From Acidimicrobiaceae bacterium (lineage in GTDB: Bacteria; Actinomycetota; Acidimicrobiia; Acidimicrobiales; JACDCH01), in the NCBI GenBank assembly GCA_041166745.1, contig JBEEGH010000006.1, positions 34,033 through 98,032 of the forward strand: a stretch of 64,000 nt of DNA, written 5' to 3'. This document shows, piece after piece, positions 3,679 through 40,167 of this stretch (position 1 is its first letter; every line of letters begins with the position of its first letter). The notes beneath the pieces are model-generated. The model worked only from the letters and a program-made list of their open reading frames with translations, did no database searches and was not told the origin of the DNA. The position numbers and the translations under genes are program-made.

Positions 3679-4854
3679 CTAGAGACCCGTCCCGTGGGCC
3701 TGGTCGCACAGGCGTTGCTCGCCCGGCTTGATCTGGCCGGCGCCGACCCCTTCGAGCGCGGCGAACGGCCCGCACTCGTTGGTGGTGATCCACACATGGA
3801 TCATCGGGACCGGTTGCAACTTCACGAATGGCGAACGGCAGTTGCCGCTGCCGTCGGTGAGGCCGGTGACGCGTGGCGCGACGGGATCGTCGGTGAAGCA
3901 GAGGTTGTCGTGGATGTGCCACTGCGTGAGCGGCCCGCCGATGTCGGGAACGGTGTCGAGCGTCGAGCCCGGCTTCAGCATGAACATCGCGGCTTCGAGC
4001 ACGCGCTTGCCGGTGCGCGTGCTGTACACGAGCGCCTCGGGATGATCGGGATCGAGCACCTTGTCGTCGTCGATGTACGTCCAGTTGATGAGGTGCTCGT
4101 CGCCCGTTCCACCGTCACCGATCGTGTGGAAACCCGCGGCCTCCGCGACGGCGGGATCAGACCATTGCGGCAGGCGAACCAACGTGACGGCCACGAGGTT
4201 CTCGGCGCGCGCCTGCTGTTCGGGCGTGACTCCCGCAATGCCGCCGAGGTCGATCGGCTGGGTCGGGTCGTACCGCTTCACCGGCACGGCCGCGGCGGTA
4301 TCCGTGAGCGTGGCCTTGCCGTCGACCACCACCACCGACGCGTGGCTGTGACTGTGCACGTGGTTGCCGGCTTCGATCATCCCGGGCAGCGCGATGGCGA
4401 CGAGCAGCCCCGCGGAGAAGTTCGCGAGTCTCGGTCGTGCGAAGACCTGACGAGGTCGCCACGCAAAGGCCCCGGATTCGAGGGCGGCGTACAGCGCGAG
4501 CGCCGCGCAGAGCGCGTCAGCGAACTGGATCGGCTCGGCGACATCGAGACCCTCGATGAACGACAGGCCACTCTTCTTTGCGACGGCCCAGCAAACGACG
4601 AGCGCGCCGTTGAGCGCCAAGCCGACGAACGCCAGCCGCCGCGACGGCCATGCGAGCGCGGCGACGCCCCACGCGACTTGCAGCAGCGCAACGGCGGCGA
4701 AGACCTTCGCCGCTTGTGGGTGTTCCGCGTGCGAGCCGATCGCGGCGGCGTGAATCGCTCCTGCACTGATCGACGCCGCGCCGGCGATCAACAGCGGTCG
4801 TAGGTGATGATCACGAGAAGAGTCCCGCGGTGGTCGTTCGGTGGTCGCGGTCAC
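3679..4854 (-). CDS. Membrane protein of unknown function (N-terminal TM helices, large C-terminal domain)
   Basis: 391-aa ORF with hydrophobic N-terminal third and a His-rich segment (NHVHSHSH). The C-terminal part looks like real coding sequence. No family recognised. Confidence 0.6.
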   Translation of the reverse strand: MTATTERPPRDSSRDHHLRPLLIAGAASISAGAIHAAAIGSHAEHPQAAKVFAAVALLQVAWGVAALAWPSRRLAFVGLALNGALVVCWAVAKKSGLSFIEGLDVAEPIQFADALCAALALYAALESGAFAWRPRQVFARPRLANFSAGLLVAIALPGMIEAGNHVHSHSHASVVVVDGKATLTDTAAAVPVKRYDPTQPIDLGGIAGVTPEQQARAENLVAVTLVRLPQWSDPAVAEAAGFHTIGDGGTGDEHLINWTYIDDDKVLDPDHPEALVYSTRTGKRVLEAAMFMLKPGSTLDTVPDIGGPLTQWHIHDNLCFTDDPVAPRVTGLTDGSGNCRSPFVKLQPVPMIHVWITTNECGPFAALEGVGAGQIKPGEQRLCDQAHGTGL

Positions 4855-21185: not shown

Positions 21186-22664
21186 TCAGGAGACGTCGAC
21201 GAGCATGCCCTCGCAGGTGCGGATGAGGACTCGGGAGGCGTCGGCGACGTCGCGACTCGAGAGCGGGTTCTCGGCTCGTCGTTGCCAGCGGCCGATGGCG
21301 TTCTGCAACGCCGTGCGGATCTCGCTTTCGCCCGAACCGCCCTCGAGCCCGAGCCGGGTCGACGGGGTCGGGCCTTCGGCGCCGAGCAACCGTTCCATCT
21401 CCTCGCTCTCGGCGGCCTTCACGCCCTTCACGGCGCCGGCCCGCAGCGCGTTGAGCAGACGCACCTCGGCGAACTCGTGCGCTCCCGCCGTCACCCGCTC
21501 GAGTTCCGACGCGATCTGATCCGAGCCCGGGACGGTGGACTCCCGCACGATCGCCTCCAGCGCGAGCAGCGCGGAGCGCGATTTCAACACGTCGCGCCGC
21601 GCCGCGAACTGCGACAACAGCACCTGCTTCAACTCGACCAACCCGCTGCGCAACACGAGCTCGTTCGCGAGCTGACTCGACGTCGTCACCGCTCCCTGAC
21701 GCACGAGCGCGGCGCCCAACCGCACACCGAAGAGCCCGAAGCGGTCGAGCAGGTGCTCGCGTTCCATCGACGTGAGCGGGATCTGGGTCGGAGCCTGCAC
21801 GAACCGATCGGCCGACAAGAACAGCCGCTCGGCCTCCTCCGCGGGTGCGGTGCCGATGAGGTGCAGCGCCTTGTACTCCGCCTCGCGTAGCGTCGAACCC
21901 GACTGCGCGAGCAAGCCCGCGACCGGCACCACGGTCTGGCACAACCGGCGCACCTTCGGGTCGTGCTTGTAGCGGTTGGCGATGCGCGACGCCGATGACA
22001 TCGAGTCGAGCCGCCCGACGCCCACCTCATCGGCCCGCGACAGCACCGCGATCGCATTCACGGGCGTAGCTTGCGCGAACTCCTGGTCGTGGAACGCTTC
22101 GAGGAACCCGATGTCGGTCGTGTGCAGATGGCGCATCAAGTACAGGACGGCATCGGCCGGCGTCACTTGGTCCTCGCCGGGCGCCAAGAACGCTTGCGCG
22201 CGTGCCGACACGTCGATCGACAATGACGCGATCCCGGGCGTGTCGATGAGCGTGATCGACCGCAACGACGAGGAGGGCCACTCCACCTCCAGCCGCTCGA
22301 CGCTGTCGGCGGGAATGCCTTGGAGATCGACGTCGATCGCGCCGGCGTCACGCGAGAACGGCACCTGCCGCGGCTCACCCTGGTGCGGGTGCATCATCAC
22401 GCGATACGTGATGCCGTCGCGGTACCAGGTGACGATCTTCGTGCACTCTCCCGCGTCGGTCGGGGCCAGCTCCTCGCCCACGAGCGCGTTGAGCAACGTG
22501 GATTTGCCTGCCTTCACCTTGCCGGCGATCGCCACTCGCAAGGGCTCATCGAGCCGCGCCCGCTCAGCCGCCAACACGGGGCCGTGCGGCGTGTCGCGAT
22601 ACACATCGCCGGCGCGCGTGAGCAGGCCGCGTACTTCGTCCAACAGCGATGCTCGTCGGACCAT
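21186..22664 (-). CDS. Dynamin-like GTPase (IniC-like)
   Basis: G1 GKVKAGKSTLLNAL, G3 LIDTPGIAS and LSRADE. Its ATG overlaps the upstream stop (ATGA 22661-22664). The 1036-aa track ORF is an over-extension into another frame of the upstream gene. Confidence 0.8.
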   Translation of the reverse strand: MVRRASLLDEVRGLLTRAGDVYRDTPHGPVLAAERARLDEPLRVAIAGKVKAGKSTLLNALVGEELAPTDAGECTKIVTWYRDGITYRVMMHPHQGEPRQVPFSRDAGAIDVDLQGIPADSVERLEVEWPSSSLRSITLIDTPGIASLSIDVSARAQAFLAPGEDQVTPADAVLYLMRHLHTTDIGFLEAFHDQEFAQATPVNAIAVLSRADEVGVGRLDSMSSASRIANRYKHDPKVRRLCQTVVPVAGLLAQSGSTLREAEYKALHLIGTAPAEEAERLFLSADRFVQAPTQIPLTSMEREHLLDRFGLFGVRLGAALVRQGAVTTSSQLANELVLRSGLVELKQVLLSQFAARRDVLKSRSALLALEAIVRESTVPGSDQIASELERVTAGAHEFAEVRLLNALRAGAVKGVKAAESEEMERLLGAEGPTPSTRLGLEGGSGESEIRTALQNAIGRWQRRAENPLSSRDVADASRVLIRTCEGMLVDVS

Positions 22665-24514
22665 CAGCTGGTGCCCGCCAGATCGGGCGCGATGGCGGCG
22701 ACTTCCGTCCGCAACGCGCGGATCCGCGTCAGCTCGGCCTCGACGTCGGGAAGCCGCTTCGTGCGGGTCTTGGCATCGATCTCGATGGCTTGCTGCGCCT
22801 TGTGCAGCGCTTCGGTCGTCGAGCGATACAGCTCCTCGGCCCGCGCCGTGAACTGATCGCGTAGCTGACGCTGGATGCGACGCACGGTGTCGCGCGCATC
22901 CTTGCCGACCTCGAAGGCGAGCTCGTCGGTGTACTTCCGATGAGCGTTCTTCGCCTGTGACCGCCGTTGTGCGAGCGCACGGTTCTTCTCGTCGCGATAC
23001 GCCTTGCCGCCGAAGATGATGCCGGCGACCACGCCGACGGGGTTGATGAGCGCCAGCCCCACCATCTGGCCGAACATGCCGAACATGAGGGCGCCGCCGT
23101 ATGACGAGCGCAAGGTGCTCATGCCAGTACTCAAGCCGTCGCCCTCTTGCAGCTCGACATCCGCCGACGCCTCCACTGCCTTCAGGAGCTCCGCTGGATT
23201 GAGCACGTCGAGCTGCACGGCGATGTCGTGGCCGTCCGCCGAGAACAGCTCTGCCACCCGCGCCGCGATCTCCCCGGCTCGTCGTTGCAGCATCGTGTAG
23301 TTGGCGACGACGTGGTCGGAGGCCTGGCGGTAGAGCCACGGCTCGAACTCCTCCCACGACTCTGCCGGGTCGCTCTGGTCGATCGCGTTGTCGGCGTCTT
23401 TCGTGAGCTGGCGCAGCCGTGCCCGCAGATCGTGATCCACATCGGTCAGCAGGTCGGTGAACCCGTCGTTGAGCGTGAGCTGCCACCGAGACGCCGTCGA
23501 ACGCAGCCGATCGCTCTGCTCGGTCGCGATCTGAAGCTGATGGACGAGGTTGCCAGCGCGCTCGGGATCGGCGAGGGCGGTGCGCTCGGACGAGAACTGG
23601 CTCTCGAGCTGAGCGATGGCCGACAACATCTCGGCGGCGGCGGTGCGCACGACGAGCAGCTCCCGCTGCCCGACGATCTCCGTCGAGAGATACGACTCGA
23701 GTTGCGCGAAGCCTGACTCCTCTTCGACCGACGCGTCGCCTGTCTCCGCCGCGACGCGTCGCAAGGTCGACGAGATCGGGAGTATCGGCGCGGTGAGCCC
23801 GGCATCGGCCAGGTGACCCAAGTCGAGATCGAGGATCTTGCGCCACGCTGGGTAGAAGTCGATCTTGGTCATCACGCAGCCGACGTTCGGGCAGAGCGAG
23901 CGAGCCGTGCGCATGAACTCGAGCTCGGGCCCCGAGTACTCCTGCGACGCGTCGCTCACGAACAACACGGCATCGGCCATGGGCAGGGCCCCGATGGTGA
24001 TCGTCGAGTGCGTCGATCCCAGCCCGCCCACGCCCGGAGTGTCGACGAGCACGAGCCCGCCTTGCAGCAACGCCGCGGGCACGCCGACATCGACCGACTC
24101 GATGTGGCGCACGTTCTCGGGATTGGCCGCCTCGGTCACGTATTGGCTCACCTGGTCGAACGGCACCGGTTCGGTCGTCGAGGCGGTGCCTTCCGGAGCG
24201 TCGGACGCGGGACTGACCGACGCCGACGCTTCCGGCTTCGGCGCGTAGTGCAACTTCGTGGGCACCGCGGTGGCGATGTCGTCGTCCACCGGGCATACGT
24301 CGACCCCGAGCAGCGCGTTGATGAGCGAGCTCTTGCCCTGCTTGAATTCACCCACCACGAGCACGTGGAACAGCGGGTCGACGAGTCGCTCGCGGGCCCG
24401 CGCCAGGCGCTCGCCCAGGTCGTCGCGGTGGTACGCGTTGGCCGCCCGGATGCACAGGTCGAGCGCTGCGGTGGCGGTTTCTCGCTCTGTCGGAGGGGTC
24501 TTCGCCTTGGCCAT
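22664..24514 (-). CDS. Dynamin-like GTPase with membrane paddle (IniA-like)
   Basis: G1 GEFKQGKSSLINAL, G3 LVDTPGVGG and G4 TKIDF. Long helical stalk. Hydrophobic Gly-rich paddle GGALMFGMFGQMVGLALINPVGVVAGIIFGG. Confidence 0.85.
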   Translation of the reverse strand: MAKAKTPPTERETATAALDLCIRAANAYHRDDLGERLARARERLVDPLFHVLVVGEFKQGKSSLINALLGVDVCPVDDDIATAVPTKLHYAPKPEASASVSPASDAPEGTASTTEPVPFDQVSQYVTEAANPENVRHIESVDVGVPAALLQGGLVLVDTPGVGGLGSTHSTITIGALPMADAVLFVSDASQEYSGPELEFMRTARSLCPNVGCVMTKIDFYPAWRKILDLDLGHLADAGLTAPILPISSTLRRVAAETGDASVEEESGFAQLESYLSTEIVGQRELLVVRTAAAEMLSAIAQLESQFSSERTALADPERAGNLVHQLQIATEQSDRLRSTASRWQLTLNDGFTDLLTDVDHDLRARLRQLTKDADNAIDQSDPAESWEEFEPWLYRQASDHVVANYTMLQRRAGEIAARVAELFSADGHDIAVQLDVLNPAELLKAVEASADVELQEGDGLSTGMSTLRSSYGGALMFGMFGQMVGLALINPVGVVAGIIFGGKAYRDEKNRALAQRRSQAKNAHRKYTDELAFEVGKDARDTVRRIQRQLRDQFTARAEELYRSTTEALHKAQQAIEIDAKTRTKRLPDVEAELTRIRALRTEVAAIAPDLAGTS

Positions 24515-24553
24515 CGAAGGCGCAGAGTAGTGAAGGTATCTAGGGTTGCGTCC

Positions 24554-26350
24554 GTGGGGTGGGTGTTAGGCGTCGATCTTGGGACGACATTCACTGCCGC
24601 GGCGGCGTGGAGAGATGGACGGGCGGAGATCATTTCGCTCGGCACGCACACTGCGGCGGTGCCGTCTGTCGTGCTCTTCCGCGAGGACGGCTCGACGATG
24701 TTCGGCGACGCCGCCGAGCTCCGGTCGGTCACCGAGCCCGAACGAGTGGCCCGTGAATTCAAGCGGCGGGTGGGTGACAGCACGCCGCTGATGATCGGCG
24801 GCTCGCCCCGGTCGCCCGAGTCGGTGATGGCCGTGCTGCTGCGAGCCGTCGTCGACGCCTCGATCCAACTCGAGGGCTCGAGGCCCGACCGCATCGCCGT
24901 GACGCACCCCGCCAGCTGGGGCGAGTACAAGCTCGACGTGCTGCGCCAGGCGATTCATCTCGCCGACCTGGGAGTCGAGACCGAGCTGGTGCCCGAGCCG
25001 GTGGCCGCCGCGGTGCACTACGCCATGCTGCAGCGGGTCGAGCTCCACGACTTCGTCGCCGTGTACGACCTCGGCGGCGGCACGTTCGACGCCGCCGTCG
25101 TGCGCCGGACGGCCGATGGCTTCGATCTCTACGGCAAGCCGGAGGGCATCGAACGCCTCGGCGGGATCGATGTCGACGCCGCAGTGTTCAGCCACGTGCA
25201 GTCGTCGCTGGGCTTGCAGCTCGACACCCTCGACCGAGACGACCCGGCCGTGATGTCGGCGTTCGCCCGGTTGCGATCTGATTGTGTCGCGGCCAAGGAA
25301 GCGCTGTCGTCCGACACCGACGCGGTGATCCCGGTGATGCTGCCCGGGCTGGCCACCGAGGTGCGCATCACCCGAAGCGAGCTCGAGACAATGATCCGGC
25401 CGGCGATTCGCGACACCATTGTCGCGCTCCGCAGGGCGATCACTTCCGGCGGGCTCGTGCCGGAGCACCTGGCGCGCGTCCTGCTCGTCGGTGGTTCGTC
25501 GCGCATCCCGCTCGTCGGCGAGATGGTGAACGCCGACCTCGCCCGTCCGATCGCGCTCGACACGCACCCCAAACACGCGGTCGCTCTCGGCGCCGCGCTC
25601 ACTGCCGCGCCCGAACCCGTACCGGTGACGGCCGCGCCCGCGTTCGCGCCGCCGCTCCAACCGCCTACGCCACTACCCCCACCGCTGCTCTCGACCCAAC
25701 CGTTCCCGTACACCCCATCGCCGTCTCCGCCCTCGACGGCGAGAGGGGTCTCGCCCGCGCTCATCGCCGCGCTCGCGGCGCTGGTCCTCGCCCTCGGCGG
25801 AGTCGGTTACGCGGTCACGCAGTCCGGTGGCAGTTCTCGCGCGACCACCACGACGACCGACAGCTCGCCGGAGGACACGACCACGACGACCGACAGTTTC
25901 TCGGATCTGACCGCACTCGAGGACAGCGACGCCCAATTCGCGGCCGAGCACCTCATGTCCACGCTCCTCACGTTCGGACCGGACGACGTCGAAAGCGTGC
26001 AGAGCTCCATGCTCGAGCTCACGACCGGGAACTTCAGCGATCAGATCAGTTCGGACAACACCAGCTTCGTGCAGTCGGTGCAGGACAACCAGACCTTCTC
26101 GATCCCGACGGTGGGGGATTCCACCGTGCGCAGCAACGATGGCTTCACCGCGGTGGTGGAGGTTCCCGTCCAGATCGATCTCGAGGATCTCGAGGGCAAC
26201 AGCAGCAGCGAGCTCCGCGACGCGACCTTTCTCGTCATCCTCGTGAACGTCGACGATCAGTTCTTGGCGGCAGAAATCGTCGACTGCACCGATGGCAGCT
26301 CGTCGTCGGCCACGGACTTCCCGGATCTCGGGTCGGACGCCTCTTGTTGA
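24554..26350 (+). CDS. Hsp70-family ATPase fused to Pro-rich linker, TM helix and extracytoplasmic domain
   Basis: GVDLGTTFT, VYDLGGGTFDAAVV and LLVGGSSRIPLV actin/Hsp70 motifs. No canonical substrate-binding domain. TM ALIAALAALVLALGGVGYAV. C-terminal domain resembles Mce-associated membrane protein ectodomains. Start is GTG 24554 or 24563. Confidence 0.8.
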   Translation: MGWVLGVDLGTTFTAAAAWRDGRAEIISLGTHTAAVPSVVLFREDGSTMFGDAAELRSVTEPERVAREFKRRVGDSTPLMIGGSPRSPESVMAVLLRAVVDASIQLEGSRPDRIAVTHPASWGEYKLDVLRQAIHLADLGVETELVPEPVAAAVHYAMLQRVELHDFVAVYDLGGGTFDAAVVRRTADGFDLYGKPEGIERLGGIDVDAAVFSHVQSSLGLQLDTLDRDDPAVMSAFARLRSDCVAAKEALSSDTDAVIPVMLPGLATEVRITRSELETMIRPAIRDTIVALRRAITSGGLVPEHLARVLLVGGSSRIPLVGEMVNADLARPIALDTHPKHAVALGAALTAAPEPVPVTAAPAFAPPLQPPTPLPPPLLSTQPFPYTPSPSPPSTARGVSPALIAALAALVLALGGVGYAVTQSGGSSRATTTTTDSSPEDTTTTTDSFSDLTALEDSDAQFAAEHLMSTLLTFGPDDVESVQSSMLELTTGNFSDQISSDNTSFVQSVQDNQTFSIPTVGDSTVRSNDGFTAVVEVPVQIDLEDLEGNSSSELRDATFLVILVNVDDQFLAAEIVDCTDGSSSSATDFPDLGSDASC

Positions 26351-30522: not shown

Positions 30523-31112
30523 TGCTCATCGCGTTCGAAGGCGGCGAAGGGTCGGGGAAGTCGACCCAGGCGAGCATCCTCGCCGACCGTCTCGGTGCCG
30601 TCCTCACGCACGAACCCGGAGCGACGCGCCTCGGCGCCCGCCTACGGGAACTCGTGCTCGACCCCAACGCCAGCATCGACCCGCGCGCCGAGGCGCTGCT
30701 CCTCGCCGCGGACCGGGCGCAGCATCTCGCCGAGGTGATCGGTCCCGCGCTGGCCAAAGGCCGCGATGTCGTGACTGACCGCTACCTCTATTCGTCCCTC
30801 GCGTACCAAGCCTTCGGCCGAGGGCTCGAACTGCAGAGCGTGCGTTCGCTGTCCGCCTTTGCCGGCGCGCCGGAAGCCGACCTCGTCGTGCTCATCACCG
30901 TGTCGCCCGAGACCAGAGGGCAGCGCCTCAAGGCGACGCCCGACCGTATCGAAGCGTCAGGCGACGACTTCCACGAGCGCGTCGAGCTCGGGTTCAAAGC
31001 GATGGCCGACGCCGATCCGCGCCGATGGGCGGTGATCGACGGCGACGGAACGGTCGACGACGTTGCGGCCAGCGTGTGGCAGGCGGTCACCACTGCGAAA
31101 TCCCGTGCATAG
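30522..31112 (+). CDS. tmk: dTMP (thymidylate) kinase
   Basis: IAFEGGEGSGKSTQ P-loop and DRYLYSSLAYQ. Its ATG overlaps the MFS stop (TGATG). Confidence 0.9.
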   Translation: MLIAFEGGEGSGKSTQASILADRLGAVLTHEPGATRLGARLRELVLDPNASIDPRAEALLLAADRAQHLAEVIGPALAKGRDVVTDRYLYSSLAYQAFGRGLELQSVRSLSAFAGAPEADLVVLITVSPETRGQRLKATPDRIEASGDDFHERVELGFKAMADADPRRWAVIDGDGTVDDVAASVWQAVTTAKSRA

Positions 31113-31142
31113 CCACACATACATGTGTGGCTATGCACGGGA
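31101..31142. terminator. 42-nt near-perfect palindrome (20-bp arms, 2-nt centre), bidirectional terminator between convergent genes
   Basis: TCCCGTGCATAGCCACACAT-AC-ATGTGTGGCTATGCACGGGA. It includes the tmk stop codon and is unusually AT-rich for this sequence. Confidence 0.7.
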
Positions 31143-31154
31143 TTTGCTCAGGGA

Positions 31155-33344
31155 TCAGTGCGGCCAGAGGGCCGTGCCGTCGTGCGGCAAAATCAGGTCC
31201 GTGTAATTCGAGACCGAGGTGAAGTCGTCGAGGAGGGTGCTTCCCGCCCACTCCTGCAACTGTCGCGGCGTCACGGTGATCGGTCCGGAGACGACACCGT
31301 TGGCGGCGTTGCGCAGCGAATCGACGTAGGGCGTTCCGAGCTGTTGCTCCGCGAAGGCGATCGTGTCCGCTTGCTCCTTGGTGAGCGTCGAGCCTGACTG
31401 CTGCGCGCGCACCGCCGCGATCAGGTGTCCTTCGGCCACGACCAACCGCTCGTGGTCGAACGCGGAGAACTCGGCGAGGTTCGTCGTGTATCCGGCGTGC
31501 TCTGCGTTGTTCGCGTCGCGGGACAGCACATTGTCCTTGAGGGTGTCGAAGCCCTTGTCGATCGCCTTGTCGACGAGGCCGCTGCCGGGGAACTTGGCCA
31601 ATCCGACGACGCCCATAGCAATTGTCTGGAACGTGTCGAGGTTCTCGTTGTAGTTGCGGGCGTCGGCGTCGAGCTGACGGGCGGTGACGAACACCTCTCC
31701 GTTGTCGCCGGACAGCACGATGCCGTCGAGGTTGGCAAGGCGTTGCGCCCACGGCGGATGCAGGTCGGTGTCGCTTTCGAGGCCAAGAACCACGGTCTGG
31801 ACGTCGAGGGCATCGCGCATTGTGAAGATGGCGTCCCTCGAACCGTCGTCGTGCATCGCGAGCGAAGTGAACTGCGCGGCCTGCATCGACCCGATCGAGA
31901 GGTGGTCGTCCCGGTTCGCCGCGTTCAGGGTCAGGGCCGGCGAACGAGCGAAGTCGGGCAGGTACTGAAGCACCATCTGCCCGTACGCCGGCGCGAGCGC
32001 GTGTGACGCGTCACCCGGCCCGGCATCGAGCGAGGCGTTGATCACGTTCGCCGTCGCGTCGCGGGCGAGCGACGGATCGCGCTCGGCCGCGTACACGGTT
32101 CCCGACACGATGAGGTCGCGAATCGACGGACCGATGATGTTCCAGTCGGGCGGGTGGCGTCCGTCGCGCCCGAACTTGTTGCCCGTGAGCCAACCCGCGT
32201 TCTCGTCGTCGCGCAGCAGTGCATTGGCCGCGTCGGGCGTTCGGGCGGCCGCTGCGACGAGGAGCGTGCCCCGGTCCTCCCAGTTCGTAGCGACTTGGTC
32301 GAAGTTCGGGTAGCCCGGGCTGCCGGCCCCCCGATCGACGACGACGGTGCCGTGGAGCACATCGAGGCCGAGCTGTCCGGCGGCCTGCGAGAACTCCGTG
32401 GAGTAGTGGCCGTAGGAGAACAGCAACGGAAACGAGTCGTCGAGCGTGCCGTCGCGGACGGCTCCGTCGAACAGGTCGTCGCGCCACGCGGTCGACAGAT
32501 TCGGTGACGCCAGCGCCAGTGCCGAGTCCACGTTGGCGAGGACATCGTCGATGCGAAACGTCGGCTCGCCCGACGTGCGCTGGTAATCGCTCCACGAGGA
32601 AAGCGAGATCGCTCGTGGCAGTAGCGCGGTCGTATCCGGGCCGAGCGCTTGATAGAAGGCCGTGGTGAACGCGGGATCGAACCGGCGTCGTCCGAGCAGG
32701 TCGGTCAGCGTCTCGAGTTGTCGCACCAGCGCGGCCGGGACGATGTCGTCATCGCCCGCCCCGTGGAGCACCACCCACGCCTGGTGCACCATCTCGAGGT
32801 CCGTCAGCGGGGGGTCGCGGTAGATGTTGCTGTCCTGTATCGAGAAGAGCAGCTCCTTGAGCCGGTCCTTCATCGCGTCGACGTCATCGCCGTCCATCGA
32901 GTCATTGATCTGACCGAGGACTGATCCGACCCGCCCGGCGAGCTCGCCTGGCGTTCCCGTGAGCGAATCGAGCGCGAGCTCGTAGACGTCGGCGTCGGCG
33001 TCACCCGGATGAGCAAGCCGCGACGCGACCAGCGCGTCGAACAAGTCGAGATCGTTCGTGTACAGGTACGTGCGATCTCTGGGCATGTCCGCCACGAAGT
33101 GGTCGAGCTGTCGAAGCGCGAACCCAAAGGCGGCCGGCCGCCGGTCGACGTTCCCCACGATCGTGAGCTCACCCTCGATCCACGCGCCCAGGTTGCTCAC
33201 CGCCAAGGCGAGGCTGCTCGGAGCGTGATTGAGCGCGTTGACGATCGAGCCGTACGCCATCGCATCGGATCGAGCCGGTGGAAGGGTCGCCAGCGTGATC
33301 GAGCTGTACTCCGCGAGGCGGTCGGGGTCGCCCTTGATCGTCAC
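31155..33344 (-). CDS. 729-aa protein of unknown function, candidate type VII-like secretion substrate
   Basis: Long clean ORF with no signal peptide or TM. GTG start overlaps the stop of the preceding small WXG-like gene (GTGA). The N-terminus IKGDPDRLAEYSSITLATL resembles starts of ESX-associated helical proteins (weak). Confidence 0.7.
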   Translation of the reverse strand: MTIKGDPDRLAEYSSITLATLPPARSDAMAYGSIVNALNHAPSSLALAVSNLGAWIEGELTIVGNVDRRPAAFGFALRQLDHFVADMPRDRTYLYTNDLDLFDALVASRLAHPGDADADVYELALDSLTGTPGELAGRVGSVLGQINDSMDGDDVDAMKDRLKELLFSIQDSNIYRDPPLTDLEMVHQAWVVLHGAGDDDIVPAALVRQLETLTDLLGRRRFDPAFTTAFYQALGPDTTALLPRAISLSSWSDYQRTSGEPTFRIDDVLANVDSALALASPNLSTAWRDDLFDGAVRDGTLDDSFPLLFSYGHYSTEFSQAAGQLGLDVLHGTVVVDRGAGSPGYPNFDQVATNWEDRGTLLVAAAARTPDAANALLRDDENAGWLTGNKFGRDGRHPPDWNIIGPSIRDLIVSGTVYAAERDPSLARDATANVINASLDAGPGDASHALAPAYGQMVLQYLPDFARSPALTLNAANRDDHLSIGSMQAAQFTSLAMHDDGSRDAIFTMRDALDVQTVVLGLESDTDLHPPWAQRLANLDGIVLSGDNGEVFVTARQLDADARNYNENLDTFQTIAMGVVGLAKFPGSGLVDKAIDKGFDTLKDNVLSRDANNAEHAGYTTNLAEFSAFDHERLVVAEGHLIAAVRAQQSGSTLTKEQADTIAFAEQQLGTPYVDSLRNAANGVVSGPITVTPRQLQEWAGSTLLDDFTSVSNYTDLILPHDGTALWPH

Positions 33345-33628
33345 GGCGGACTCGTTTGGCTCAGCGCGTCGAAGTAGTGCGCGGTGGCGATGGTCGAGCG
33401 CAGTTCGTCAGCGTCGCCCTCGAGGGAACGAGCGAACGCGGACAGCGTGTCCATCGTGCTGGCGAAGTCGCGGTCGAACTGATCGCGGGTCTCGCCCTGA
33501 AAGTCCGTGTGGGCGATCGTCAGCGCGTCATCGTGGGCGTTCACGACTGCCCGCAGCCGCGTCGCGAGGTCTTCCATGGCGGCTACCGCCTGTTGTGCGA
33601 TGGCGAATGGAAAGACGAACGACCCCAC
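33341..33628 (-). CDS. 95-aa helical protein, WXG100-like (FxG variant)
   Basis: Size and helix-turn-helix pattern fit, with central FQGETRDQF in place of WxG. GTG 33628 is preceded by GAGG. Start uncertain. Confidence 0.5.
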   Translation of the reverse strand: MGSFVFPFAIAQQAVAAMEDLATRLRAVVNAHDDALTIAHTDFQGETRDQFDRDFASTMDTLSAFARSLEGDADELRSTIATAHYFDALSQTSPP

Positions 33629-33662
33629 GGTCGACCTCGCGACGGCTGCGGCTCGGCAACGG

Positions 33663-34157
33663 TCAGGAGTACCTGATGGTCTGGTCGGTCTGCTCGAGCG
33701 CCGAGGCAAACGTGGTGGCGCCGTTGGCGAGTGTGCTGTAACGGTCGTTGACGTCGGTCATCACTTTGTTGAACTGACCGCGAATGGCGTCGTCGAACGC
33801 GGTGACCTGCTTGGTGACGTCGGCCCGCATGCCATCGGCTGCGCTCAGCGCTTCGTCGAGGATCTGTCCGACGGCCGCGCTGAGGTCGGCTTCGGCGGCA
33901 TCGGCCGCCGCTCTGCTGGTGCCGTCCCAGTCGGACGTTTGCAGCGAGTTCTTGGCCGTCGTGATCTGATCGCGCAGGCCCGTGGCCATCGTGGTGAAGT
34001 GGGTCTTCAACGTGTTGGTCACGCTGTCGACCTGCGCATGCAGCTCCGACGACACCTTGGCGGCGTCAGAGCCGGCCGTGGTGGCCGCCCCTCCCGCGTC
34101 GCCGAGCCGCTGGCTCGCCGCTTGGATGTCGGCCACGTTGCCGCCGATACGTCCCAT
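33663..34157 (-). CDS. 164-aa WXG100-like protein (extended)
   Basis: Ala/Thr/Asp-rich helical sequence with SDWDGTSRAAADAAEADL (W-x-G motif). ATG 34157 is preceded by GAGGTAAGG. Confidence 0.6.
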   Translation of the reverse strand: MGRIGGNVADIQAASQRLGDAGGAATTAGSDAAKVSSELHAQVDSVTNTLKTHFTTMATGLRDQITTAKNSLQTSDWDGTSRAAADAAEADLSAAVGQILDEALSAADGMRADVTKQVTAFDDAIRGQFNKVMTDVNDRYSTLANGATTFASALEQTDQTIRYS

Positions 34158-34192
34158 GTCCTTACCTCGTTTCGTCGGGAGAAGTCTTCGAC

Positions 34193-34221
34193 ATCTGACA
34201 ATAACTTTCATTGTGTGTCAA
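34193..34221 (-). promoter_or_regulatory. Candidate sigma70-type promoter for the WXG-like operon
   Basis: Minus strand TTGACA (34221-34216), a 17-nt spacer, then TCAGAT (34198-34193). It lies about 36 nt upstream of ATG 34157 in a low-GC intergenic stretch. Confidence 0.4.
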
Positions 34222-34251: not shown

Positions 34252-34545
34252 TCAGGGCGCGCTGAAGATCACATGCGTACCGATGCGGCGCCAGACGACA
34301 TGCGGCTCGTCCTGCACGACGGCGGTGCCGTAGTGAAACGTTGCTCGTCCGTCGCCCGCCCAGCTCATCTCGAAGACGCCCGAGGCGCCTTGGACTCCCT
34401 TCACTCGGAGACCGTTGCGGAATGGTCGTCCGGCCCTCATGTCCTCGACGAACTGCGCGACCGCAGCGCGAAACGCCGCCTGCTGCGGGGGCGTCAATCG
34501 GTCGAAATCCGCGCCGAATCGCGCGAGCCACGCAAAGGTCGGCAC
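34252..34545 (-). CDS. RelE/ParE-superfamily-like toxin (type II TA)
   Basis: LRVKGVQGASGVFEMSWAGDGRATFHYG...VVWRRIGTHVIF resembles the K-x-L-x-G...w-E-x-R...IGtH-x-i-f pattern of RelE/ParE-like toxins. It lies 6 nt downstream of an AbrB-type gene. Confidence 0.5.
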   Translation of the reverse strand: MPTFAWLARFGADFDRLTPPQQAAFRAAVAQFVEDMRAGRPFRNGLRVKGVQGASGVFEMSWAGDGRATFHYGTAVVQDEPHVVWRRIGTHVIFSAP

Positions 34546-34551
34546 AAAGCG

Positions 34552-34857
34552 TCAGCGCTTCTGTCGGCGCGGGGGACGCTTGGAGCGGGCCTTCAGAGCT
34601 TCCTGGAACTGTTCGCCTGAAGCGAAGACCTCCACGCGTCCCGCGGCGAGGTCGGCATCGGCTTGGCGCTCACCGGCCTGCCACTCGGGTGTCCAGAACC
34701 ACGCTTGGGTGGCGTCGATGACCTTCTGCGGCCGCAACAGGATCCCGTTCTCCGTGATCTCTGCCTCGAGCAGGTCACCTTCCTCGAGCCGCGCGGCGAC
34801 CCGGATCTCCTCCGGCAGGGTGAGCTGTCCCTTGGCGCGAAGGGTCATGCGTGCCAT
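34552..34857 (-). CDS. AbrB/MazE/SpoVT-family antitoxin
   Basis: MTLRAKGQLTLPEEIRVAARLEEGDLLEAEITENGILLRP is a SpoVT-AbrB swapped-hairpin motif. Start is 34857 or 34848. Confidence 0.7.
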   Translation of the reverse strand: MARMTLRAKGQLTLPEEIRVAARLEEGDLLEAEITENGILLRPQKVIDATQAWFWTPEWQAGERQADADLAAGRVEVFASGEQFQEALKARSKRPPRRQKR

Positions 34858-34907
34858 CAATCCATCGTACATTCCGAGAATCGGATTGTCGTACTCGCCC
34901 GAGCGGA

Positions 34908-37900
34908 TCACGATGTGCCGCGCTCGGCTGCCGCGAGTTGCAGCAGCGCCGCCTGGCCGTCTTCGACGACGAAGCCCCGTCCGGGTACGAGAGGAACGGC
35001 CAGCCGTCGCGGGAGCCGCACGCCCAGGAGGTCGCCGTCGGCGGCAAGGTCGGGTTGGAGCAGAACGCCGGTGCGCGACTGACGCACGATGCGCAGCCAG
35101 TGGCCGTACGCGGCGCGCACGTCGTCGCCCCGCCCCGCGGCTACGACGTGGAGGTCAGGCCGGCCAGATCGCAACGCGGCCATGAGCACACCGTCGCCGT
35201 CGTCGACGCTGGGCGCGTCGTCGACGAACACGAACCACCGCCGGCGGTCTGTCGTAGCGGCGCGCACGATGTGGTGCAGCTCCGCGAGTGAGCCGATCGC
35301 GTCGAACGCATCGACAGCGTGCAGGAGCGAGCGCGGCTCGCACACGCCGACGAGCACCGTCTCAGGGTCGGCAGCGCGTATCACTCGTGCCATGAGCGCG
35401 AGCGCGCTTGTCTTTCCGCTGCGCGGCGGACCGGTGATGAGTACGTGCTCACCGTCGTGCACGCACAAGCCGGTGACGTCGAGGTCGTCGTCGCCGATAC
35501 CGAGTGGAATGTGACAGGGAGACTCGAGGCGTGCGGCCGGAAGCACGCTCGCGGACACCTCTGTGGGAAGCGTGCCGACCGATGGCGCGACGCGTGGCGC
35601 CGCCAGCGCGCTGAGGTCGCTTGGCATCCCGACTTGCACGATGCGGTTGCCGTCGCTGTGGACGGCGCGGCCCGGCACGAACCGCGGTAGCTGCGCCGCT
35701 CGCAACCCCAGCGTCGAATAGTCCGACGCGTCGGCCAGCCGGAACAGCAGTTTCTGGCTCACGAGCGACGCGAGCCGCAACGGCAGCGCACCCATGCGAT
35801 CGGCGGTGACGATGAAGTTGATGCCCACGGCCGGCCCTTCGGAGAAGATCCGCCGGAAGGCGTCTGACACCTCCGTGCCGTCGAGTCCCTCGTGTTCCGC
35901 GAGAAACGCACCGACGCCGTCGATGCATGTGACGATGCGCGGGAGCGACTCGCCGGTGACCCGCCGGCGGTCGACTTCAGCGCGCAGGAACCGCACGAGT
36001 CGGCCCTGCGCCTCCCGCTCGTTGGCGGTGATGACGGCCCCGACGTGTGGCAATGCGCGCAGCGGCGCCAGTCCGTTTGGCCCGTAGTCGATTGCATACA
36101 CGTGGCACTCGGGCGCGTCCCGCGTTTGCACCAGTGCCTCCACGACGGACAGCACCGCGGTCGTCGTGCCGCTGCCGACCATCCCGAAGAGGGCGAGATG
36201 GCCATCCGCCGGGGCCCATCCCACCGCGGCCTGTCGCTGCTGATCGGGCTCGTCGGCCATGGCGAACGCCACGACTCCAGGCGACCCCGCGGGCACGTCC
36301 GTGAGCTCGATCCGCTCGCTGAGCATCGGTAGCCAAGGGCGCCGCGGCAGCGGTCGGCCGTCGAACGCACCACGGATCGCGTCGACCAGCGTCGTGAGCT
36401 CACTCGGCCCCTCGTCGTCGAGCTGCTCACCGTCGGCTTGCGGTCCGCGGCGGAAGGCCTTCACGCGCAGCGGCCCGCTGCGCCCGGCCCGCTGCGGGGA
36501 GGTGGCCAGCGCGGTCTGCGCGAGCACGACATCGGTGGGGCCACGACGCAAGTACGCCCGCCCCGGTGTCGTTCGGCTGATCGTCGCCGCGCTCGGGCGA
36601 TCGACGATGTCGGTGGACTCGGACGCGTCCTGCACGCGCAGCGCAATGCGCAGGTTGGTGTTGGCCTTGATGTTGGCATTCACCGCGCCAGACGGACGTT
36701 GTGTGGCGAGCAACAGGTGCACGCCGAGGCTGCGCCCTCTCTGGGCGATGCCGACGAGTGCACCGAGGAAGTCAGGCAGCTCGGTGGCCATCGTGGCGAA
36801 CTCGTCGATCACGACCACGAGCCGAGGCAACGGGCCCCGAACCGAACCGGAACGAAGGTAGGTCGGCAGGTCTGGCACGCCCGCTTCGCGCAACGTTCGT
36901 TCGCGATGGCGCAGTTCGGCCTCGAGCGAGCGCAGCGCCCGCTCGGCCAACTGCTCGTCGAGGTCGGTGACCAGCCCGACCACGTGGGGCAGCCGGCTGC
37001 ACTCGTCGAACGCGCTGCCGCCCTTGTAGTCGACGAGCACGAACACGAGATGCTCAGGGTCGACGCGTGCGGCCATGCCCGCCACGAGCGAGCGCAACAG
37101 CTCGCTCTTGCCTGAGCCGGTCGTGCCACCGACGAGGCCGTGAGGCCCGTCGCGCACAAGGTCGACGTGCACGACACCTTCGTCACCTATGCCGATCGGT
37201 GTCGACGGCGACGGGTCGACCTCGCCATGCCGCCACGCCTCTCGTATCGCGGCGGGCGAGGGGTCATCGATGCCGAGCAACGGGAGCAGCCGGACGACGT
37301 CGGTCAAGCCGGCCCCGGCCAGCTCGAGCTCGGGGTCTTCGTACCGTGCAAGCGACCGTGCGCATTCGCGGGCGGTGGCGTCGTCGATCCCTGCGACGAA
37401 CAGCTCGCGAATGTGGAGACGGTCTTGCGGACGGCGCAGCTCGGCGTCGCCGAGGTCGTCGCGGATCACGACGATGCTGGTGCACATCGAAGGCAGCTGA
37501 TCCTCCGTGGCCGCGATGACGATGCCGGACTGGCGCTGCAACAGTTGCCGCACCGGAGCGCGACGCCCCTTGATCGACGCGACGTCGTCGACGACCACCA
37601 ACAGGGCCCGGTCATCGTCCTCACCGGCGAGTGCGTCGCCTTCGAGATGCGGCAACCACTTCACCCAATCCCAATCGGCTGCGCCGAACACCGCGATGCC
37701 GAGATCGGCGGGGCCGTGGTGCACCGCCGCCTGGCTGACGAGCGACCGGGCGAGCGCGAGCGCCATCGAGCGTTCACCCACGATGCCGACCACGCCGCCG
37801 GACGAGAGGTCGACGTCGACCGGAGCCCGCGGCAACCCGTCGTGTTCGTCGAGGAGCGCCCGGACTTCGGGCGGTGGAGCGTCGCGGCCTGCTGGTACCG

Positions 37901-38945
37901 CTGGGCTCCACGGCGGCCGACCGATGCCGGCCCTCAGCCGCAGGAAGTCGGCATCCGCCGGCCGCCTTTGCCACAACTTCACGCTGGGCCGCGTGGCGCG
38001 GCGGAGCACCTCGGCCGGGTCGGTCAGTTCGTCCTCCCGCCGGTTCCGTTCGTCGACTGCACGGACCGCGAGGTCGAAACGAAACTGCTGGAGCGCCGCT
38101 GCGAAGGTGCGGCTGTGGCGCCGACGCTCCTTGCGCGACGAACGCTTCGACGCGATCCAGTTGACCATCGCAATGATCGGTCCGAGCGCGGCGAACAGCG
38201 CGAAACGCGGGTTGCCGTAGATGACCACCATGCCGGCACCCATGAGGACCGGTCCGACGATCATCGCGATGCCGAAGGCGCGCGATGACGAGGAGGCCTT
38301 TGGCGCTTCGGGGGCGACGAGAGGCTCGAGCGGACTGGGCAGCGCGGCGCGAGGCGGGCGGTTGAACGGGACGAAGCCGCCAACCGGCAGACCGACCGGT
38401 CGGTCGTCGTCGTGGTCGAGCCGCAGTCGTAGGTGGCTCGCGCCGACGCGAACGAGGGCGTTCGGCGGCAACGGTGTCGACGCCGTCACCGGTACGTCGT
38501 CGATCCACGTGCCGTTCGTGGAACCGAGGTCGGTGATCGTCGCGTTGGCACTGATCGACGCATGGCGGCGCGAGACCGAAGGATCGTCGAGGACGATGTC
38601 GCACGACGCGTCGCGTCCGATGGTGACGTCGTGCTTGTCGATCGGATACGTACGGCCCGCAACCGGACCACCCACCACCGCGAGCACGAGGCCGGTGGCG
38701 CGTGGCCCCGGAGGACGTTCAGCGACGCGACGTGTGATCTCGGCGACGGCCCCCTCGTAGAGGCCCACTTCGTGAAGGCCGATGTCGGGACCGAACCATC
38801 GACCATCGATCCGGAGCCCGAGATCGTCGGACCGGGTGCCGTCGAGGCCCGTCGTGAGGTCGCCGACGCAGGCCTCCGGGTCTTCCATCGTGAGCTCGAC
38901 CTCCGCCGCCGCGCCGCCGTAGGCCAGAACTAGATGCATAGTCAT
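34908..38945 (-). CDS. FHA-domain FtsK/SpoIIIE-family triple ATPase (EssC/EccC-like type VII secretion ATPase)
   Basis: FHA motif TIGRDASCDIVLDDPSVSRRHASI...GSTNGTWID and two TM helices. Three P-loop domains: GGTTGSGKSELL, degenerate GMVGSGTTTAV, and GPPRSGKTSAL. FtsK-type VVVIDEFATMA and LLLATQRP motifs. Start taken at MTMHLVL (38945). Confidence 0.9.
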   Translation of the reverse strand: MTMHLVLAYGGAAAEVELTMEDPEACVGDLTTGLDGTRSDDLGLRIDGRWFGPDIGLHEVGLYEGAVAEITRRVAERPPGPRATGLVLAVVGGPVAGRTYPIDKHDVTIGRDASCDIVLDDPSVSRRHASISANATITDLGSTNGTWIDDVPVTASTPLPPNALVRVGASHLRLRLDHDDDRPVGLPVGGFVPFNRPPRAALPSPLEPLVAPEAPKASSSSRAFGIAMIVGPVLMGAGMVVIYGNPRFALFAALGPIIAMVNWIASKRSSRKERRRHSRTFAAALQQFRFDLAVRAVDERNRREDELTDPAEVLRRATRPSVKLWQRRPADADFLRLRAGIGRPPWSPAVPAGRDAPPPEVRALLDEHDGLPRAPVDVDLSSGGVVGIVGERSMALALARSLVSQAAVHHGPADLGIAVFGAADWDWVKWLPHLEGDALAGEDDDRALLVVVDDVASIKGRRAPVRQLLQRQSGIVIAATEDQLPSMCTSIVVIRDDLGDAELRRPQDRLHIRELFVAGIDDATARECARSLARYEDPELELAGAGLTDVVRLLPLLGIDDPSPAAIREAWRHGEVDPSPSTPIGIGDEGVVHVDLVRDGPHGLVGGTTGSGKSELLRSLVAGMAARVDPEHLVFVLVDYKGGSAFDECSRLPHVVGLVTDLDEQLAERALRSLEAELRHRERTLREAGVPDLPTYLRSGSVRGPLPRLVVVIDEFATMATELPDFLGALVGIAQRGRSLGVHLLLATQRPSGAVNANIKANTNLRIALRVQDASESTDIVDRPSAATISRTTPGRAYLRRGPTDVVLAQTALATSPQRAGRSGPLRVKAFRRGPQADGEQLDDEGPSELTTLVDAIRGAFDGRPLPRRPWLPMLSERIELTDVPAGSPGVVAFAMADEPDQQRQAAVGWAPADGHLALFGMVGSGTTTAVLSVVEALVQTRDAPECHVYAIDYGPNGLAPLRALPHVGAVITANEREAQGRLVRFLRAEVDRRRVTGESLPRIVTCIDGVGAFLAEHEGLDGTEVSDAFRRIFSEGPAVGINFIVTADRMGALPLRLASLVSQKLLFRLADASDYSTLGLRAAQLPRFVPGRAVHSDGNRIVQVGMPSDLSALAAPRVAPSVGTLPTEVSASVLPAARLESPCHIPLGIGDDDLDVTGLCVHDGEHVLITGPPRSGKTSALALMARVIRAADPETVLVGVCEPRSLLHAVDAFDAIGSLAELHHIVRAATTDRRRWFVFVDDAPSVDDGDGVLMAALRSGRPDLHVVAAGRGDDVRAAYGHWLRIVRQSRTGVLLQPDLAADGDLLGVRLPRRLAVPLVPGRGFVVEDGQAALLQLAAAERGTS

Positions 38946-38970: not shown

Positions 38971-40167
38971 ATGCCTGTCATTGGGCAATACTCGCTCGAG
39001 CAACTGCTCAGCTCGAACGCCGAAGCCAACGTGTGGCGGGGGCGCTGCCATCGTCCGGTCGACCGCTCCGTCGCGGTCAAGCAGGTGCTGCCGCGCGACC
39101 CCGACGACGCCGCCCGCCTGCTCGAGGAGGTCACGACCCTCCTGGCCCTCGATCATCCGCATGTCGTTCGGGTGCTCGAGGTGCTCGACGGCGAGGACGG
39201 CGTCATCGTCGTGATGCAGTACGCCCCGGGTGGTTCGCTGGCGGAGCTTCTCGCCGAGCGCCGATGCCTCGACGCCGGCGAGACCGTGGCGATCGCCGCC
39301 CCGCTCGCGGATGCGCTCGCGTCGGCGCACCGGCATGGCATCGTCCACGGCGATGTGAAGCCCGCGAACGTGCTGTTCACGTCAGACGGCGAGCCGCTCC
39401 TTGCTGACTTCGGGGGTGGCATGCGAGGAACCGACGGCTACATCGCGCCGGAGGTGGCAGCGGGCGCAACGGTCGACGAGCGGGCCGACGTGTACGCGCT
39501 CGGCGTCGTGTGTCGCGAAGCCCTGGGGGGCGACGTACCCGACGAGCTCGCGTCAGTGCTCGATGCCGCGGTCGCGCCGAACCCGAACGATCGGCCGGCG
39601 AACGCAACTGAGCTGGCGCGTCTGCTGCGGGCCGCGGTGCCGGGTGACTCGGTGCGCCTGCCTCGTCCCGCCCTCGGCGCCGCCCGCGTACTCGGACCGC
39701 CGACACGACTGTTCGGACCGCGGCCGCCAGCCCGCAGCATCGCCCGCCGGGCGCGGTCGAAGTCACCGTTGCTGTTGATCCCGCTGTTGCTGCTGGCCGC
39801 GTTCGCATGGGTCCGTCAGGGTTCCGCCCGCCGCACCGCCGAACCGGTCGCGTGTGCCGGCGCGCCGATCCCGGTGCCCGCGGGCGCCCAGATCGTGCGG
39901 GCGGACACCGCGGGCATCGGCTGTCTCGCCACTGGCGTGTACGCGAGCGGCGTGCTCACCATCCGGTTGCAACCGACCGACCCCAGACCACGCCGCTTCG
40001 CGCTCGGGCTTCCCGGCGATCGCATTTTTCTGGGTGATTGGGATTGCGATGGTGCCGCGTCGCCGGCGCTGTTCCGTCCGTCGACCGGCGCGACGCTCTA
40101 CTACGACACGTGGTCGGCGATCGAAACACCGTCAGACAACGCGAATCGCTGTCGTTCGATCGGCTGA
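38971..40167 (+). CDS. Membrane Ser/Thr protein kinase (Hanks type, non-RD, atypical Gly-loop) with extracytoplasmic domain
   Basis: VAVK, HGIVHGDVKPANVLF (HGD instead of HRD), LADFG and GYIAPE. TM SPLLLIPLLLLAAFAW. C-terminal GDWDCDGAASPALF is FG-GAP/VCBS-like. Confidence 0.85.
   Translation: MPVIGQYSLEQLLSSNAEANVWRGRCHRPVDRSVAVKQVLPRDPDDAARLLEEVTTLLALDHPHVVRVLEVLDGEDGVIVVMQYAPGGSLAELLAERRCLDAGETVAIAAPLADALASAHRHGIVHGDVKPANVLFTSDGEPLLADFGGGMRGTDGYIAPEVAAGATVDERADVYALGVVCREALGGDVPDELASVLDAAVAPNPNDRPANATELARLLRAAVPGDSVRLPRPALGAARVLGPPTRLFGPRPPARSIARRARSKSPLLLIPLLLLAAFAWVRQGSARRTAEPVACAGAPIPVPAGAQIVRADTAGIGCLATGVYASGVLTIRLQPTDPRPRRFALGLPGDRIFLGDWDCDGAASPALFRPSTGATLYYDTWSAIETPSDNANRCRSIG

Follow-up and report, generated by a model that had tools for sequence, protein, structure and literature searches.

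A putative substrate operon of a small type VII-like secretion module in Acidimicrobiia, with a double-length WXG protein and a candidate export domain

The closest described arrangement to the locus analysed here is T7SSd, a type VII secretion system (T7SS) of Olsenella and Bifidobacterium, in which an EssC protein bearing a forkhead-associated (FHA) domain with an intact phosphothreonine pocket is combined with a kinase and a WXG100 protein, without a ubiquitin-like protein, and is accompanied by TsdH, a single-pass transmembrane protein, and TsdI, a large Sec-dependent Ig-like protein with a C-terminal transmembrane segment (PMC11217815). LXG toxins of T7SSb use the targeting factors Lap1/Lap2 (DUF3130/DUF3958; PMC10801868, PMC9600955), and for actinobacterial toxins a 'WXG-like' helical N-terminal domain with predicted export by FtsK/HerA-type pumps has been described (PMC3113570, PMC3482391). 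Here we analysed an operon from an Acidimicrobiaceae bacterium (GCA_041166745.1, contig JBEEGH010000006.1), found in a stretch of 64,000 nucleotides with a G+C content of 66-73% (the window, to which all coordinates refer unless stated otherwise). According to the open reading frames, it encodes in order, on the minus strand, proteins of 164, 95 and 729 amino acids (aa), called p164, p95 and p729 in the following. We consider it probable that these genes encode the substrates of a minimal type VII-like secretion module, which is rare and present in some Acidimicrobiia and a few other Actinomycetota, with p729 as the exported cargo. The locus as a whole would then be a T7SS-like module distinguished by the unusually small number of its conserved genes, by a WXG protein of double length and by a hitherto undescribed export domain.

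Type VII systems are recognised by a membrane EccC/EssC ATPase of the FtsK/SpoIIIE family with three FtsK-like P-loop domains, and WXG100 genes by their position next to such an ATPase; here an ATPase of this build adjoins the genes of two WXG100-like proteins. The ATPase gene next to the operon (34908-38945, minus strand) encodes a protein of 1345 aa with an FHA domain, two transmembrane segments and three P-loop domains, for which Pfam and NCBIfam searches led to FtsK_SpoIIIE (E = 1.7e-43) and FHA (E = 1.4e-17) as domains and to EssC (E = 5.7e-144), EccCa (2.1e-110) and EccCb (4.1e-81) as best family models. Scores of 481, 370 and 273 bits were reached with TIGR03928, TIGR03924 and TIGR03925, respectively, all under the equivalog cut-offs. 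The Walker A motifs read GSGKS in domain 1, GSGTT in the middle domain and RSGKT in domain 3; the middle P-loop is thus without the Walker A lysine. About 75 residues ahead of the FHA domain gave no Pfam match. The FHA domain itself keeps the phosphothreonine-binding residues (GR, SRRH and NG). Across three related loci the ATPase is 67-79% identical, and besides FtsK it is the one EssC-like ATPase of the genome. It would be the motor of the module and possibly its sole membrane component. Divergent from it, a single-pass membrane Ser/Thr kinase is encoded at 38971-40167 on the plus strand (Pkinase, E = 7.2e-30), with a transmembrane segment at residues 263-285 and a cysteine-containing ectodomain of about 110 aa, and this gene is kept in the related loci L002, L004 and L035. 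With 54-69% identity the kinase changes as fast as the cargo, a rate in line with a function as sensor of an external signal. We propose that the kinase regulates the system through the FHA domain of the ATPase.

The locus therefore has in common with T7SSd an FHA-EssC protein with phosphothreonine-binding residues, a membrane Ser/Thr kinase, small protein(s) of the WXG100 type and the lack of YukD/EsaB. It differs in that no TsdH-like or TsdI-like protein was found in or near it, that no more than the ATPase, p164 and p95 make up the conserved unit, with the kinase optional, that the WXG protein has 164 aa instead of about 100, and that the host belongs to the Acidimicrobiia, a class unmentioned in that RefSeq-based survey (PMC11217815).

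The first-pass annotation of this DNA, made from the sequence alone, had described p164 (33663-34157, minus strand; ATG start preceded by GAGGTAAGGA) as a helical protein with W-D-G about 75 residues in and had expected the small proteins to model as helical hairpins. Modelling of p164 with AlphaFold2 (AF2), for which as for the other models the underlying alignments were shallow, led indeed to a hairpin with a predicted local distance difference test (pLDDT) of 85.8, composed of a helix of residues 2-72, a turn leading into W77-D-G79 and a second helix of residues 79-163. The W-D-G at residues 77-79 is replaced by W-E-G or W-H-G in distant homologues, and its W and G are invariant in nine sequences, homologues of 25-41% identity included. 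Thirteen close relatives were returned by a word-indexed homologue search, and sequence and profile searches of the PDB with p164 gave coiled-coil noise only. In L002, L004, L035, L036 and L056 the p164 gene is located directly 3' of the ATPase gene. Since p164 is 82-89% identical among three related loci, on par with holB and topA, it would fit a constrained, slowly evolving core component with a role unlike that of p95, and by analogy we propose an EsxA-like core component or co-substrate.

The second gene (33341-33628, minus strand) has a GTG start preceded by GAGG, and its product p95 has the length of a canonical WXG100 protein. Its relatives begin alike with MGSFVFP. A central F-x-G in place of W-x-G had been noticed before; hhalign aligned the p95 family over its full length with 13 canonical WXG100 proteins encoded in genomes of Actinomycetota (Prob 56%, E = 1.1e-4, 85 columns), with FxG placed on WxG. 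Within the family the G is invariant, and a residue other than F occurs in the most distant member alone. Homologues of p95 are encoded 5' of proteins sharing the N-terminal domain of p729 (see below) in L018, L025, L016, L056 and L057. As p95 (55, 66 and 65% identity across the three related loci) and p729 (54, 65 and 66%) diverge in step, p95 would fit a specific partner of p729 which co-evolves with the cargo, and in analogy to known systems we propose a cargo-specific targeting partner or chaperone. None of p164, p95 and p729 has a transmembrane segment or a hydrophobic N-terminus by hydropathy. A small GC hairpin (CGACC-GTGG-GGTCG, 33620-33633) surrounds the GTG start codon of p95 and could modulate its translation initiation.

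With EsxA/EsxB of T7SSa and T7SSb the two proteins share the predicted hairpin with W-x-G at the turn in p164, the position of two small helical genes beside an EccC/EssC ATPase, and repeated sub-threshold matches to PF06013 and TIGR03930. In contrast to EsxA/EsxB, the helices of p164 are twice as long as usual, with about 70 and 85 residues, p95 carries F-x-G, neither protein passes the threshold, and p164 and p95 evolve at very unequal rates. The latter difference suggests that they are not simply a pair of the EsxAB type.

For p729 (31155-33344, minus strand, GTG start) the absence of a signal peptide, a transmembrane segment and a nameable domain had been stated before and was confirmed: the highest 19-residue hydropathy is 1.28, nothing like the hydrophobic N-terminal segment of a signal peptide was found, and neither Pfam nor NCBIfam led to a match. 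The word-indexed search returned only 13 close homologues. The additional designation as an orphan is nevertheless only partly correct, as a profile search run exhaustively over 1.84 billion representative proteins revealed two groups of further relatives. About a dozen of these are full-length or related to the C-terminal domain. The others, about 75 proteins (clusters) of 200-750 aa, match p729 solely at its positions 3-125, and do so at their own N-termini. This modular N-terminal domain of about 125 aa (N-domain; residues 3-128, 32961-33338, minus strand) surfaced only in the exhaustive search and not in the word-indexed one, and has the consensus GDPxrLExYT...AP.DL...LDxxPAAFAFALRxLD. Pfam analysis of the C-termini of 73 N-domain proteins led to Abhydrolase_8 (four proteins), Peptidase_C2 of the calpain type (two), Ntox17 (two), glycine zipper (two) and Colicin_M (one), plus domains of unknown function (DUFs), and about half of the N-domain proteins carry a GxxxGxxxGxxxG run near the C-terminus. 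The family as a whole thus has the layout of polymorphic toxins, with one trafficking-type N-terminal domain and many alternative C-termini. In their N-terminal 130 residues these proteins open with the acidic GDPxrLE motif and have no hydrophobic stretch, and the route would therefore not be Sec. We propose that the N-domain is an undescribed secretion-targeting domain.

No Pfam or NCBIfam model covers the N-domain, neither in p729, its N-terminal 145 residues and ten distant homologues nor in the 73 N-domain proteins, and a PDB profile search gave coiled-coil noise only. The LXG family, which had been suggested for comparison, was not supported, as residues 1-145 of p729 gave nothing in Pfam at E <= 10, LXG (PF04740) included, and none of the 73 proteins matched LXG. 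LDXD was also rejected as identity of the N-domain, because the source paper confines LDXD to Firmicutes (comparison with PMC3113570 / PMC3482391). Conceptually, the N-domain equals the 'WXG-like' domain of actinobacterial toxins, beside which it can be set by description only, and might be the same domain (PMC3113570). Similar to LXG toxins with Lap1/Lap2, small helical WXG100-like genes are located upstream of, and coupled to, the gene of a large protein, a helical N-domain is common to varied C-terminal toxin domains, and an EssC-type ATPase adjoins. In contrast, the N-domain of p729 has about 125 aa versus about 200 for LXG, with no detectable sequence kinship, the phylum is another one, and p729 has neither a recognisable toxin in its C-domain nor an immunity gene.

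The remainder of p729 (31158-32960, minus strand) is an acidic, cysteine-free domain of about 600 aa, predicted by AF2 as all-alpha; the model of the whole protein is all-helical with a pLDDT of 61.5. A Foldseek search with the model, as recommended in the first-pass annotation, led to no significant match in the PDB but only to generic ARM/HEAT-like neighbours (E at least 6.6e-3, template-modelling score below 0.2), and ten distant relatives of p729 had no relevant Pfam domain. The p729 family contains 0-1 cysteines per about 730 aa compared to a background of 0.85%, and p729 has 103 D+E versus 50 K+R; cysteine depletion and acidity may be taken as a weak hint to export. We propose that the C-domain is the effector moiety.

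The distribution of these genes provides the comparative evidence. In close relatives, one of them a metagenome-assembled genome (MAG) labelled Acidimicrobiaceae, with p729 identities of 54-66%, the order is holB, kinase (reverse), ATPase, 164 aa, 94 aa, 730 aa, tmk (reverse), MFS and topA. A distant full-length homologue is encoded in L056 in an ATPase-165-130-751 operon at an unrelated chromosomal site, again with a 4-bp overlap and followed by small genes of no assigned function, and around the minimal locus L036 there are genes for a helicase, a STAS protein and a PPase. In G619 and G559, from other families of the phylum, homologues of p164 (E = 1.7e-20 and 2e-36; W-H-G and W-E-G, respectively) and then of p95 (9e-9 and 1.4e-14) are encoded after the ATPase, and in G559 nothing further related follows. 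As these three are kept together there, the conserved core is ATPase, p164 and p95, usually with a kinase nearby. A metagenomic contig (L018, 1-7212) carries the gene of an ATPase closely homologous to that of the window (776 bits) and then a glyoxalase-like gene, a p95 homologue (E = 1e-14), a 158-aa gene, the gene of a glycine-zipper protein with the N-domain and that of a membrane protein of 192 aa, which could be the immunity factor for the glycine-zipper protein; no p164 homologue was detected in L018. On the P0050 contig a truncated 688-aa gene is followed by genes of 168, 133 and 713 aa, the last with the N-domain and a 4-bp overlap, and in G487 and L057, at sites remote from any ATPase gene, a p95-like gene has a 4-bp overlap with the gene of an N-domain or p729-like protein. 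In another genus of the same family (L016; G009 contig C286, 243-3638), a p95-like 138-aa gene precedes the gene of an N-domain protein of about 690 aa with a different C-terminus, after which a predicted lipoprotein (lipobox LGGGC) is encoded as candidate immunity factor.

When eight genomes were compared directly, a full-length FHA-ATPase homologue was found in all five other genomes with the N-domain, and the three genomes of the own genus without the N-domain had FtsK only. Among 401 sampled genomes of the phylum, four encode the N-domain and four the p164 family, three of them shared, and in a class-level sample one of 301 genomes was positive, namely that of the window. The system is rare and patchy.

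The overlap GTGA at 33341-33344, in which the stop of p95 overlaps the GTG start of p729, had been read correctly from the sequence; p95 and p729 are translationally coupled, and the same 4-bp overlap recurs in six other loci (L002, L004, L056, L057, L025 and the P0050 contig). It had also been stated that only a palindromic terminator and no immunity-like gene follows p729, and this stands: in the window there is no gene between p729 and the convergent tmk but only, between both stops, a long perfect hairpin (31098-31145, assigned to neither strand; -46.3 kcal/mol, z = -9.1 versus shuffles), which is a probable bidirectional terminator. Upstream of p164, TTGACA-17 nt-TCAGAT (34193-34221, minus strand) had been read from the sequence as a near-consensus promoter. 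This is correct for TTGACA (34221-34216), a perfect -35 hexamer, but TCAGAT (34198-34193) agrees with TATAAT in three of six positions, and a sigma-70 consensus scan made no call at this element. Nevertheless, because the element (TTGACA-17-T(C)NNAT) is kept in L001, L002 and L004, where the proteins are 54-66% identical, together with a conserved leader of about 35 nt 3' of it, it is very probably functional; in L056 the -35 hexamer reads ATGACA. As the hexamers form a partial inverted repeat (TGACA...TGTCA), conserved along with the promoter, an operator or regulator binding site is an equally likely reading, besides or in place of a promoter.

The interval between tmk and holB, a block which adjoins topA, contains only the kinase, the ATPase, p164, p95, p729 and a toxin-antitoxin pair (34252-34860, minus strand) of a MazE/AbrB-type antitoxin (PF04014, E = 4.3e-8) and a small RelE/ParE-like open reading frame. 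This pair alone separates the ATPase gene from the p164 operon, and because it is absent from this site in the related loci L002, L003, L004 and L056, it is a local insertion and does not belong to the system. In L001, a MAG of the same genus, an unrelated PIN/RHH (VapBC-like) pair occupies the same site on the opposite strand (3706-4493 of that locus), and the ATPase-p164 intergenic site looks like a recurrent landing spot for toxin-antitoxin cassettes. An origin of the separate promoter as by-product of this insertion was ruled out by the presence of the element in loci without it; the separate promoter is ancestral, and the gap between ATPase and operon has been widened here by the insertion. 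Elsewhere in the window (21186-26350), two tandem dynamin-like GTPases are encoded divergently from an Hsp70-like gene beside topA; they are kept in L002 and are unrelated to the operon.

The first-pass annotation had regarded the small proteins as two WXG100-like chaperones of a large downstream T7SS substrate of new type. From the adjoining EssC/EccC-like ATPase, the conserved core unit, the hairpin of p164, the alignment of p95 with WXG100 proteins, the fusion of the N-domain to toxins and the ATPase in five of five N-domain genomes, the outline of this proposal is supported, with the modification that the small proteins differ in role. In the mechanism that we envisage, p95, a WXG100-like F-x-G hairpin, would be made in 1:1 coupling with p729 and would bind its helical N-domain of about 125 residues, giving a helical bundle as composite signal (compare Lap1/Lap2 with LXG, and EsxAB). 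The FHA-EssC-like translocase would recognise this bundle through its ATPase domains in the cytoplasm and export the complex. Expressed from its own promoter with a strong -35, p164 would be the EsxA-equivalent core co-substrate or a component of the conduit, and the membrane Ser/Thr kinase would probably gate the system via the phosphothreonine-binding FHA domain of the ATPase. Outside the cell, the acidic all-alpha C-domain of 600 residues would act. Because p729 is single-copy, syntenic, not polymorphic at the locus and without a cognate immunity gene, a dedicated extracellular or envelope effector is more likely than an antibacterial toxin. A more far-reaching version appears possible but doubtful to us: the system would be truly minimal, with the FHA-EssC-like ATPase as sole integral-membrane component, p164 would replace or extend the accessory proteins, perhaps as conduit or plug, and the N-domain with its F-x-G partner would be the export signal for polymorphic effectors, among them p729 with an entirely new activity.

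Several results weigh against export of p729 by a type VII-like module. We infer secretion from homology, architecture and co-occurrence, and the counts behind the latter are low and not independent of phylogeny, with three positive genomes from one family. In the genome of the window (98.3% complete), PF05108, TIGR03920, PF08817 and PF10140 gave no match for EccB, EccD, YukD and EssB/YukC at E <= 0.1, with EccE, MycP, EssA and EsaA not searched; since EccB, EccD, YukD and EssB are missing, a complete secretion channel is unaccounted for. A canonical WXG100 protein was likewise not found in this genome. Both small proteins remain below the curated cut-offs of the WXG100 family, which are 27.3 bits (PF06013) and 44.85 bits (TIGR03930): PF06013 scored 20.5 bits with p164 (E = 5.7e-4), 16-20 bits with three divergent members of its family and 18.8 bits with p95 (E = 0.002), and TIGR03930 scored 21 bits with p95 (E = 2.8e-4). 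In a profile comparison of the kind proposed in the first-pass annotation, the p95 family aligned with the 13 WXG100 proteins at E = 1.1e-4 (see above), and hhalign of the p164 family with the same 13 proteins was weak (Prob 5%, E = 0.007, 49 columns). In Foldseek against the PDB the p164 model was not separable from generic helical hairpins, EsxA:EsxB of Thermomonospora curvata being ranked 47th (E = 2.8). Both proteins are best called WXG100-like rather than established members of the family. Furthermore, the N-domain is of low confidence in the p729 model (pLDDT 33-45), no toxin domain or adjacent immunity gene was found for p729 by family, fold or downstream gene, and p729 differs from typical polymorphic toxins in its single copy and its synteny.

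Some of these features may be explained differently if p729 is not a cargo but a cytoplasmic scaffold, adaptor or regulator which docks on the ATPase via its N-domain, a docking domain that toxins would have borrowed. The position of p729-type genes inside the ATPase operon in near and distant lineages, the single copy without immunity gene, the ARM/HEAT-like alpha-solenoid of the model, a fold typical of scaffolds, and the lack of any other known accessory component in the system would all agree with this. However, in G559 and G619 no p729-type gene adjoins the retained ATPase, p164 and p95 genes, and L018 carries a glycine-zipper protein in the p729 slot, indicating that a p729-type protein is dispensable and swappable like cargo. 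As p729 also changes at the rate of p95, faster than the ATPase, and is depleted of cysteine like other N-domain proteins, we consider a non-exported p729 unlikely.

An antibacterial polymorphic toxin, with immunity encoded elsewhere or needless since the producer has no target, is suggested by the N-domain, which also occurs in fusions with Ntox17, colicin M, glycine-zipper and hydrolase domains, and by the small membrane proteins or lipoprotein encoded downstream of other family members; for distant relatives such a function is possible, as small genes do come next in L056. In all four closely related loci, in contrast, tmk converges directly and no downstream gene is present, the C-domain is uniformly conserved and not cassette-like, and no toxin family matched by sequence or fold, which makes this assignment of p729 distinctly unlikely.

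A non-secretory module, i.e. a kinase/FHA-controlled FtsK-like device for DNA transfer, development or anti-phage defence with the helical proteins as intracellular partners, is highly improbable: conjugation in Streptomyces is indeed driven by single FtsK-like proteins, the channel components searched for (EccB, EccD, YukD, EssB/YukC) are absent from the genome, and at the level of domains PADLOC matched the kinase with PD-T4-6 and mad6 and the ATPase with mad8 and SspH, but the ATPase has the EssC/EccC-specific build (FHA, two transmembrane segments, three P-loops; best models at E = 6e-144 and 2e-110), toxins which carry the N-domain and act outside the cell must be exported by some route, and a known defence system was rejected, as the PADLOC matches span generic kinase and P-loop domains only and further MADS or Ssp genes are absent.

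Export of p729 by a small type VII-like module thus remains the interpretation that we favour, and it bears on two questions which are open in the type VII field, namely the identity of the channel and the recognition of large folded cargo. Known type VII systems need four to six membrane proteins. If the present module exports, it would be the simplest T7SS-like machine for reconstitution, with one ATPase and two small helical proteins as conserved unit and an optional kinase, and the pairing of kinase and FHA domain offers a testable switch. The C-domain of p729, with 600 residues, is an effector-sized fold without known relative. Moreover, by means of the N-domain, unannotated metagenomic proteins of about 75 clusters can be interpreted as candidates for secreted effectors in uncultured Actinomycetota, with Ntox17, colicin-M-like, calpain-like, lipase-like and glycine-zipper proteins as candidate types.

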